The notes: a model not told the origin generated them from the sequence alone. A stretch of DNA of 16,379 nucleotides from a virus (IMGVR_UViG_2602041863_000003:1-16379); one strand, 5' to 3'. Numbered from the stretch's first letter, positions 6,696 to 7,005 are shown. Program-made: numbers and translations.

Positions 6696-6771
6696 GGCCC
6701 TTTAGCTCAGTGGTGAGAGCGAGCGACTCATAATCGCCAGGTCGCTGGTTCAAATCCAGCAAGGGCCACCA
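6696..6771 (+). tRNA. tRNA-Ile2-like (anticodon CAU; Met/Ile-lysidine type)
   Basis: Cloverleaf traced by hand: acceptor ggccctt/aagggcc, anticodon loop cucauaa, T-loop ttcaaat, CCA encoded; close to E. coli ileX as recalled. Confidence 0.85.
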
Positions 6772-6772
6772 A

Positions 6773-6849
6773 CCGTCACCAGTTCATCAGGAAAGAGCGT
6801 CAACCCTTTAAGTTGAGTGTGCGAGGTTCGAGTCCTCGGTGGCGGGCCA
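6773..6849 (+). tRNA. Atypical tRNA-like gene, anticodon read as UUU, with C8 and C33
   Basis: Acceptor ccgtcac/gtggcgg (one G-U), D-arm with G18G19, anticodon stem tcaac/gttga, loop ccuuuaa, T-arm cgagg-ttcgagt-cctcg, CCA encoded; departs from near-universal U8 and U33. Confidence 0.45.
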
Positions 6850-6851
6850 GT

Positions 6852-6927
6852 GCCGACTTAGCTCAGTAGGTAGAGCGACTGACTTTTAATCAGTAGGTCA
6901 CCAGTTCGATTCCGGTAGTCGGCACCA
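6852..6927 (+). tRNA. tRNA with anticodon UUU (Lys-type by anticodon; identity uncertain)
   Basis: Acceptor gccgact/agtcggc, D-arm gctc-agtaggta-gagc, anticodon stem actga/tcagt, loop cuuuuaa, T-loop ttcgatt (one A-C mismatch in T-stem), CCA encoded. Confidence 0.7.
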
Positions 6928-6930
6928 TAT

Positions 6931-7005
6931 GCGGGTATCGTATAATGGCTATTACCTCAGCCTTCCAAGCTGATGATGCGGGTTCGATTCCCGCTACCCG
7001 CTCCA
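6931..7005 (+). tRNA. tRNA-Gly (anticodon UCC)
   Basis: Near-identical to E. coli glyT as recalled; acceptor gcgggta/tacccgc, anticodon loop cuuccaa, T-arm gcggg-ttcgatt-cccgc, CCA encoded. Confidence 0.85.

Follow-up and report, generated by a model that had tools for sequence, protein, structure and literature searches.

Introduction

In the ileZ-argN-argO clusters of Shiga toxin (Stx) phages, for example Stx2a_F765 and phages of the 933W type, the transfer RNA (tRNA) genes stand after the antiterminator gene Q and a methylase gene and before the toxin or lysis genes; for the 933W type this layout is taken from record annotations. The same slot is occupied by an array of four tRNA-like genes, here called elements 1 to 4, at positions 6696-7005 of a viral DNA stretch of 16,379 nucleotides (nt; IMGVR_UViG_2602041863_000003:1-16379, referred to as the window). 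The array forms the tRNA cassette that a lambdoid prophage, in this case a defective Escherichia coli remnant, carries downstream of Q. Element 1 is exactly ileZ, and the homology of element 2 to argN spans its full length. The two clusters differ in that argN carries the anticodon loop CUUCGAA with U8 and U33 and scores 54.8 bits against the Rfam tRNA model, whereas element 2 carries CCUUUAA with C8 and C33 and has no Rfam hit. In addition, the third gene of the Stx cluster, argO (tRNA-Arg, UCU), is replaced in the window by two genes derived from host thrU and glyT.

We favour, with moderate confidence, a reading of the array as a lambdoid cassette in which an argN-derived element 2 no longer decodes and a thrU-derived element 3, bearing the same UUU anticodon, would accept lysine. 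Judged by their bodies, neither UUU gene belongs to the lysT-type tRNA-Lys lineage, and the two were converted to UUU independently. The lambdoid tRNA cassette is known; what is new is the apparent natural Thr-to-Lys shift and the widespread U33-less, Arg-derived element.

Three further groups of described systems bear on these genes. Alloacceptor anticodon shifts have been reported for eukaryotic tRNA genes (PMC3923123) and for remolded mitochondrial tRNAs (PMC4783518). Like these, element 3 is near-identical to a tRNA of another family with the middle anticodon base changed, but it is known from sequence, lies on a prophage copy and is a rare segregating allele (6 of 5,426 genomes), not one fixed in a cellular set. 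Position 35 is decisive for Thr, Lys and Arg identity alike. Saks and colleagues are said to have shown in 1998 that one anticodon change made E. coli tRNA-Arg(UCU) a functional tRNA-Thr(UGU) in the laboratory.

The second group consists of phage tRNAs that counter tRNA-cleaving defences. Variants of T5 tRNA-Lys and tRNA-Thr defeat PARIS (PMC12409363), and a phage tRNA-Lys rescues phages from PrrC170 where E. coli tRNA-Lys gives only low rescue (PMC11555353). The window likewise holds phage-borne UUU genes, and its element 2 departs from host tRNA-Lys at all mapped determinants of the PARIS effector AriB. The published tRNAs, however, are canonical, expressed, carried by virulent phages and of demonstrated effect, whereas the present ones lie in a temperate, defective prophage, where the resistant-looking element 2 has C33 and C8 and may not decode, and the sound element 3 keeps the determinants.

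The third group comprises tRNA-like RNAs that do not decode. The tRNA cluster of phage T4 encodes the stable RNAs species 1 and 2, to which element 2 and its counterparts in other arrays (slot 2) can be likened as non-decoding tRNA-like RNAs made among real tRNAs, with excision by RNase P expected. mascRNA is also tRNA-shaped, with acceptor and T arms and no functional anticodon loop; slot 2 differs in being known from sequence alone.

The tRNA array

ARAGORN calls four tRNA genes in the array, which together with the parts of element 2 discussed below are:

6696-6771, + strand: element 1, tRNA-Ile2-type (CAU); ARAGORN, Rfam 72.5 bits, PGAP tRNA-Ile
6772-6818, + strand: gene-conversion patch, holding 12 of 18 differences from TW10690
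6773-6849, + strand: element 2, argN-family tRNA-shaped element with loop CCUUUAA, C8, C33 and discriminator G; ARAGORN Lys(ttt)
6805-6811, + strand: element 2 anticodon loop, C32 C33 U34 U35 U36 A37 A38; from the sequence and comparison with TW10690
6852-6927, + strand: element 3, thrU-bodied tRNA with anticodon UUU; ARAGORN, Rfam 74.2 bits, PGAP tRNA-Lys
6931-7005, + strand: element 4, glyT-derived tRNA-Gly (UCC); ARAGORN, Rfam 65.6 bits

The genes are separated by spacers of 1 nt (6772), 2 nt (6850-6851) and 3 nt (6928-6930), and the 3' CCA is encoded in each gene. Elements 1, 3 and 4 exceed the gathering threshold of the Rfam tRNA family RF00005 (29 bits), with E values of 1e-12 to 1e-15, and are structurally sound tRNAs. 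Element 2 gives no RF00005 match even at E<=10; its best match within the clan, to tRNA-Sec, reaches 16.7 bits (E=1.6) where the threshold is 47, and a selenocysteine tRNA or transfer-messenger RNA was dropped on this score. Minimum free energy (MFE) folding and its z-scores were uninformative and were not used, as the bona fide tRNAs 1 and 3 also give no MFE cloverleaf. The initial annotation had placed the genes at exactly the ARAGORN coordinates, with the same 1-3 nt packing, and had correctly named them as Ile2-like (CAU), a UUU element with C8 and C33, a second UUU tRNA of different body and a glyT-like Gly. Its proposal that tRNA predictors would decide the status of 6773-6849 led to a split outcome, with ARAGORN accepting the element as UUU and the Rfam tRNA model rejecting it.

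Element 1 is identical to the ileZ gene of Stx phages (Stx2a_F765 was compared), and C4-G69, C29-G41 and A73 mark it as Ile and not Met by the bacterial identity sets (rules from PMC9976931). It is the best-conserved slot, 126 of 141 copies being identical. Element 4 carries a compensatory U6-A67 pair (window 6936 and 6997) where most relatives have C6-G67, as presumably does host glyT; the corresponding C6T/G66A haplotype (string numbering) occurs in 16 of 141 arrays. A consensus promoter scan of the region returned matches at chance level and no promoter was assigned. The best sigma-70-like match (window 6919-6946, TCGGCA-16-TATAAT, 10 of 12 positions) spans the junction of elements 3 and 4 and is probably spurious.

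Element 3 has a thrU body and a lysine anticodon

Element 3 is identical to host thrU at 74 of 76 positions (97.4%), the only differences being A26G (6877) and G35U (6886), and is likewise 74/76 identical to phage Thr(UGU) copies. By descent it is thus a thrU body and not a member of the lysT family; a thrU-type chromosomal tRNA-Thr gene is present in essentially every E. coli genome searched. The G35U change turns the threonine anticodon UGU into UUU. In E. coli, lysine identity is set by the three anticodon bases and A73, and threonine identity by acceptor pairs and the anticodon (PMC9976931). With the loop CUUUUAA and A73, element 3 presents all of U34, U35, U36 and A73 of the set read by lysyl-tRNA synthetase (LysRS; rules from PMC9976931). 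Because the LysRS determinants are all kept and threonyl-tRNA synthetase loses G35, element 3 is most likely charged with lysine, and some residual threonylation may persist.

The change can be placed by comparison of the same slot and flanks in relatives, which read UGU in most arrays and UUU here, as in alloacceptor shifts elsewhere; we infer a natural shift of this kind, from Thr to Lys. In a sample of IMG/VR anchored on the 3' half of the gene, which includes clonal copies, the slot-3 anticodons among the matches listed were UGU 124 times, UUU four times and UCU once, and all UUU copies also carry G26. The exact Lys allele is found in 6 of 5,426 complete E. coli genomes. Among these six are TW10690 and 720632, isolates from different countries in which the allele lies in prophages with complete modules for lysis, packaging, head and tail and with Q regions that differ; both have the array order Ile / Arg(UCU) / Lys(UUU) / Gly. 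The cassette is widespread in E. coli, and its third slot toggles between Thr and Lys (and Arg) by single anticodon changes.

The UCU copy belongs to phage SerU-LTIIb (L003, 1122-1197), in which the thrU body carries UCU, is annotated as tRNA-Arg and has in addition U16C, U20C, G24A and A31G. By its body it represents a second, independent anticodon shift in slot 3. In another IMG/VR sequence (L057) an extra tRNA-Arg(CCG) lies between the Thr and Gly genes, a sign of more cargo turnover in the cassette.

Structure and ancestry of element 2

Element 2 reads CCGUCAC-C8-A9-GUUC-AUCAGGAAA-GAGC-G-UCAAC-C32 C33 U34 U35 U36 A37 A38-GUUGA-GUGUG-CGAGG-UUCGAGU-CCUCG-GUGGCGG-G-CCA. The cloverleaf is complete, with stems of 7/4/5/5 base pairs (wobbles at U4-G69 and U11-G24), a 7-nt anticodon loop, G18G19, a T loop of the form UUCRANY and a purine at position 37. 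The near-universal U8 and U33 are both absent, being replaced by C8 at 6780 and C33 at 6806.

The element is homologous over its whole length to argN (UCG, loop CUUCGAA) of Stx phages and is closer still to a tRNA-Arg(UCU) gene, loop CUUCUAA, in the same slot of TW10690. Relative to the latter the loop has changed by U33C (6806) and C35U (6808) to CCUUUAA. Full-length homology to canonical tRNA-Arg genes, which score 55-56 bits, indicates that element 2 is no chance cloverleaf, and its sequence places it in the argN / tRNA-Arg(UCU) lineage. Rfam tRNA scores in slot 2 fall from 55.6 for Arg-UCU and 54.8 for argN to 39.6 for the CCUUUAA form with U8, and the window form, CCUUUAA with C8, has no hit; the C8 form in L008 is likewise without an RF00005 match. 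E. coli tRNA-Arg identity rests on A20, the main determinant, with C35, U/G36 and A/G73 (PMC9976931). By these rules element 2 has kept A20, U36 and G73 and has U in place of C35.

A comparison of about 1.5 kb of the window with TW10690 gives 18 differing positions, 12 of which lie in 6772-6818, that is, in the spacer base and the first 46 nt of element 2. Over this patch the window has exactly the C8 form found in strain 504239. TW10690 is matched instead by elements 3 and 4 and by the type-B-like 3' end of element 2, with its repaired T stem and discriminator G. Because the patch matches one strain while the remainder matches the other, element 2 of the window is a chimera, in which a short conversion tract swapped the front of a canonical Arg(UCU) gene, loop included, for the C33/C8 version.

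The slot-2 family

Relatives of element 2 were collected by anchored scans of IMG/VR and metagenomes, giving several hundred copies with clonal copies included; counts refer to the matches listed. A further scan of genome contigs was anchored on GGTTCGAGNCNNCGNTGGNGG, a loose anchor that matched ordinary tRNAs across phyla, and three true relatives were found among its listed matches (Dryocola, Citrobacter youngae and Enterobacter). Two slot-2 clades, argN (UCG) and Arg (UCU), are canonical and stable. The others are the CCUUUAA clade with C33, a CAUAUAA clade with A33, a short-loop clade with the stem GCAAC/GUUGU and more than 16 different loops of 5 or 6 nt, and one form with an 11-nt loop. 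The short loops read C-NNN-R-Y or NNN-A-U, as would a normal loop that lacks U33, or both C32 and U33. U33 has thus been lost in every non-canonical clade, to C, to A or by deletion. The discriminator base also differs between clades (U, G or A).

Variation in the short-loop clade is concentrated in the central triplet, where entropy is 1.0-1.8 bits; it is zero at the invariant loop-flanking bases, 0.05-0.18 bit per site across the body domains and 0.27 for the 4-nt variable region. Bodies of this clade show 0-4 differences in 68 positions between loci whose flanks are 70-90% identical, and in the window's own clade element 2 is pairwise 95-98% identical with flanks at 62-74%. Over 23 haplotypes, pairing is kept in 97% of cells of the acceptor, D and T helices, and three pairs have changed on both sides; since these haplotypes were hand-picked for readable arms, the figure is an upper bound. 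Short-loop members have discriminator A and the T loop UUCGAGG (L025, L028, L048, L057, L076, L086, L132, L178, L209, L349 and L529-L568) and come from E. coli phages as well as from genomes of Dryocola and Enterobacter. In Citrobacter youngae ATCC 29220 (L192) the acceptor, D and T arms are kept and 12 nt (AACGACCTGGAA) replace the anticodon arm and variable region. Decay is seen in slot 2 as well, in the form of acceptor mismatches, arm deletions, argN/argO fusions and a D-stem deletion allele that is widespread in enterohaemorrhagic E. coli (EHEC).

Slot-2 relatives are present in about 1,008 of 5,426 E. coli genomes. Extrapolated from evenly spaced rows of the genome match list, the C8 form would number roughly 160 and the U8 form roughly 360, and the D-stem-deleted EHEC form and canonical Arg would each account for some 220; the CCUUUAA element is thereby placed in very roughly 750 genomes (~14%). 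The rarity implied by the initial annotation is hence reversed, the odd element being the common one and the normal-looking Lys(UUU) gene, in six of the same 5,426 genomes, the rare one. PGAP labels the U8 form tRNA-Lys and the UCU form tRNA-Arg and leaves the C8 and D-stem-deleted forms unannotated. Whether a tRNA-Lys is annotated or missing in RefSeq E. coli genomes at this slot thereby hinges only on U8 or C8 or on the D-stem deletion, which skews tRNA gene counts.

The EHEC form is exemplified by E. coli O145 RM9872 (L569, 1190-1265), where the CCUUUAA element has a 1-nt D-stem deletion and C70U; by extrapolation it occurs in ~220 EHEC genomes. C70U creates G3-U70, the universal identity pair of alanyl-tRNA synthetase, in an element unannotated by PGAP. 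The array there reads Ile / D-stem-deleted element / Arg(UCU).

Probable loss of decoding by element 2

Element 2 most likely no longer decodes, because it lacks both U33, the base of the U-turn, and U8, fails the covariance model and has a mixed identity set, Arg-like at A20 and G73 and Lys-like in the UUU anticodon, with the key Arg determinant C35 missing. It appears to be one of several independent U33-less derivatives of slot 2. The choice offered by the initial annotation, between a pseudo-tRNA and a tRNA of altered function, was apt, and the evidence leans to the non-decoding side. Tightly spaced tRNAs in E. coli operons are separated by RNase P, for which the acceptor and T-arm shape is needed and the anticodon loop is not. 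Speculatively, the body of element 2 may have been retained since functional tRNAs lie only 1-2 nt away on the same transcript, from which RNase P would have to release them.

Several observations weigh against a non-decoding element 2 kept as a spacer. ARAGORN calls the window copy tRNA-Lys, as PGAP does the U8 version, and in the window the cloverleaf is intact with a perfect T stem. C33 is without effect on cleavage by gamma-toxin, so that recognition of such a loop is not always lost (PMC2275089). Among 141 arrays from a sample whose anchor lay outside elements 1, 3 and 4, stem-damaged copies number 6 of 140 for element 1, 29 of 141 for element 2, 6 of 124 for element 3 and 20 of 119 for element 4. 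Damage to element 2 exceeds that to elements 1 and 3 (p about 1e-4) and is no worse than that to the bona fide tRNA-Gly (p=0.52). Because the rate resembles that of tRNA-Gly, the population data do not show element 2 to be dead, and the idea that it is uniquely degenerate was unsupported by this test. Against the spacer idea, at least 11 Stx-type arrays have an uncallable slot 2 and an intact element 1, and in one array (L107) slot 2 is cleanly deleted; a strict requirement for a spacer is weakened accordingly. The population data prove element 2 neither dead nor needed.

Alternative explanations for the two UUU genes

The favoured reading, a decoding-disabled element 2 beside a probable lysine acceptor, was weighed against three others. 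Pure drift, which we consider unlikely, would make element 2 a neutral pseudogene hitch-hiking in a successful module and the UUU of element 3 a recent change, functionless or mildly harmful and tolerated as the late region is rarely expressed. The defective state of the window prophage, the great rarity of the element 3 allele, the outright decay in slot 2 (deleted anticodon arms and the EHEC D-stem deletion included) and the stepwise fall of the Rfam score across slot-2 forms would all be expected under drift. Yet the bodies of element 2 are conserved far above their flanks, variation among short loops is confined to three loop bases with the anticodon stem and flanking bases fixed, and U33 has been lost in three different ways. 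The element 3 allele, moreover, is found in two intact prophages of differing modules and countries, which argues that it has persisted and recombined.

What the tRNA cargo might supply was approached through codon usage. The Q-region genes, the kinase and PP2C phosphatase genes most strongly, are enriched in AUA, AGA/AGG, ACA and GGA codons, the kinase-PP2C pair using AUA, AGA and AGG at 27, 15 and 15 per 1,000 codons. AAA and AAG are not enriched in the codon counts of the prophage Q-region genes. The comparison of codon usage suggested in the initial annotation therefore accounts for the Ile2, Arg, Thr and Gly cargo and not for Lys, and codon supply was ruled out as the cause of the Lys genes.

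A Lys gene unexplained by codon supply would suit a role in counter-defence, a plausible but unlikely explanation ranked just behind drift, in which one or both UUU genes supply Lys tRNA when PrrC or AriB destroys host tRNA-Lys(UUU), element 2 acting as a poorly cut decoder on an Arg body. The phage tRNAs that rescue from PrrC170 (PMC11555353) and PARIS (PMC12409363) are its precedents, and slot 3 switches between Thr(UGU) and Lys(UUU), the two prime AriB targets. AriB cuts U36-AAUC/A41 (cut at the slash) and needs U16, and U39A, A41C and U16C impair cleavage (PMC12409363). Element 2 has C16, G39, U40 and U41 and is thus unlike host tRNA-Lys at positions 16, 39 and 41. PrrC cleaves 5' of U34, and U33C of element 2 would stand at this cut junction. 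Such a position agrees with the published tendency of loop mutations to lie at cleavage sites or close to them (PMC10264068). Element 3, however, keeps U16, U39, A41 and UAAUCA, that is, all AriB determinants; it should be as sensitive to AriB as thrU, and a PARIS-resistant Lys variant was ruled out for it on the known determinants, U16 and UAAUCA being retained. For element 2, C16, G39 and U41 were inherited with the Arg ancestry and not acquired, C33 should impair decoding, and the window copy carries C8 and fails the tRNA model. The 5-6 nt loops of other slot-2 clades cannot decode, and the published cases all concern virulent phages. If either UUU element functions, tRNA-based counter-defence would extend to prophages, and the locus would offer a natural case of tRNA gene recruitment in bacteria.

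Least probable of the three, and improbable in our estimate, is a mimic acting in trans, with element 2 and the U33-less family selected as non-decoding decoys or inhibitors of a protein that binds anticodon loops (a nuclease, synthetase or modification enzyme) and the triplet setting specificity: the conserved body with its randomised anticodon-equivalent triplet and fixed flanking loop bases, the convergent removal of U33, the encoded CCA, the RNase P-compatible shape and the precedent of mascRNA, a tRNA-like RNA that binds protein without a decoding loop (PMC9976931), would fit, but the discriminator base varies between clades, D-stem-lesioned copies are common, the triplets are patternless, and the same data are explained by neutral drift at loop positions free of constraint. 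Should element 2 be selected although it does not decode, it would stand for a new class of tRNA-like RNA. A combined proposal, that slot 2 holds selected, decoding-disabled mimics and that both UUU genes are a temperate-phage counter-measure to PrrC and PARIS, with element 2 a nuclease-insensitive decoder or decoy, also seems unlikely, to much the same degree as pure drift.

A separate observation concerns threonine copies outside the window. Phage-borne thrU-like tRNA-Thr(UGU) genes in IMG/VR often carry U16C, frequently with U20C, at least 20 copies having GCTCAGCAGGCAGAGC and at least four GCTCAGCAGGTAGAGC. U16C corresponds to Mut3, which impairs AriB cleavage, and T5 tRNAs have C16 (PMC12409363). 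By analogy, the U16C copies could be PARIS-escape alleles in temperate phages.

The prophage setting

The genes of the window follow the order DUF968, RusA, Q, a terminator-like hairpin, kinase, PP2C phosphatase, DNA methyltransferase, tRNAs, two holins, endolysin and terminase. The features surrounding the array are:

2685-3380, + strand: antiterminator Q; Pfam Phage_antiter_Q, E 5e-84
3427-3448, + strand: terminator-like hairpin right after Q, candidate tR'; consensus scan only
3450-4289, + strand: Ser/Thr kinase; Pfam, PADLOC, PHROGs
4286-5029, + strand: PP2C phosphatase; Pfam, PADLOC, PHROGs
5597-6646, + strand: DNA methyltransferase, ending 50 nt before element 1; Pfam N6_N4_Mtase, PADLOC MTase_II
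7280-7299, + strand: strongest terminator-like hairpin downstream of the array; consensus scan only
7420-8505, + strand: lysis cassette, with holin 7420-7860, holin 7799-8125 and endolysin 8122-8505; PHROGs 198, 217, 465

Almost directly after the terminase come a tail-fibre assembly gene and then host yciE/yciF. Head and tail genes are thus gone from the late region, which marks the window prophage as defective. The initial annotation expected the tRNAs to be made on induction; their position downstream of Q is confirmed, and such expression is uncertain in a defective prophage. Four complete E. coli genomes, an enterotoxigenic E. coli (ETEC) O6:H16 strain among them, carry the array with 100% identity, and full-length relatives are present in ~600 of 5,426 complete E. 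coli genomes.

The kinase (3450-4289), whose gene overlaps the start of the PP2C phosphatase gene, matches anti-phage defence kinase families in PADLOC (mad6 3e-40, PD-T4-6 1e-34, Stk2 6e-28). Compared with ETEC 2014EL-1346-6 (L006), the window is otherwise identical and has a replaced segment at 7774-12630, which in the window holds the remainder of the lysis cassette (from within the first holin), DUF1441 and the terminase, and in L006 tail-tip and tail-fibre pseudogenes. The two are defective versions of one prophage adjoining yciE/yciF. By correspondence with the L006 annotation (window 152-883 to L006 2640-3694), a gene for a Doc-family (death-on-curing) toxin lies at window 389-883, and a hokD toxin gene annotated upstream of the Q region in L006 falls just before the window's first base.

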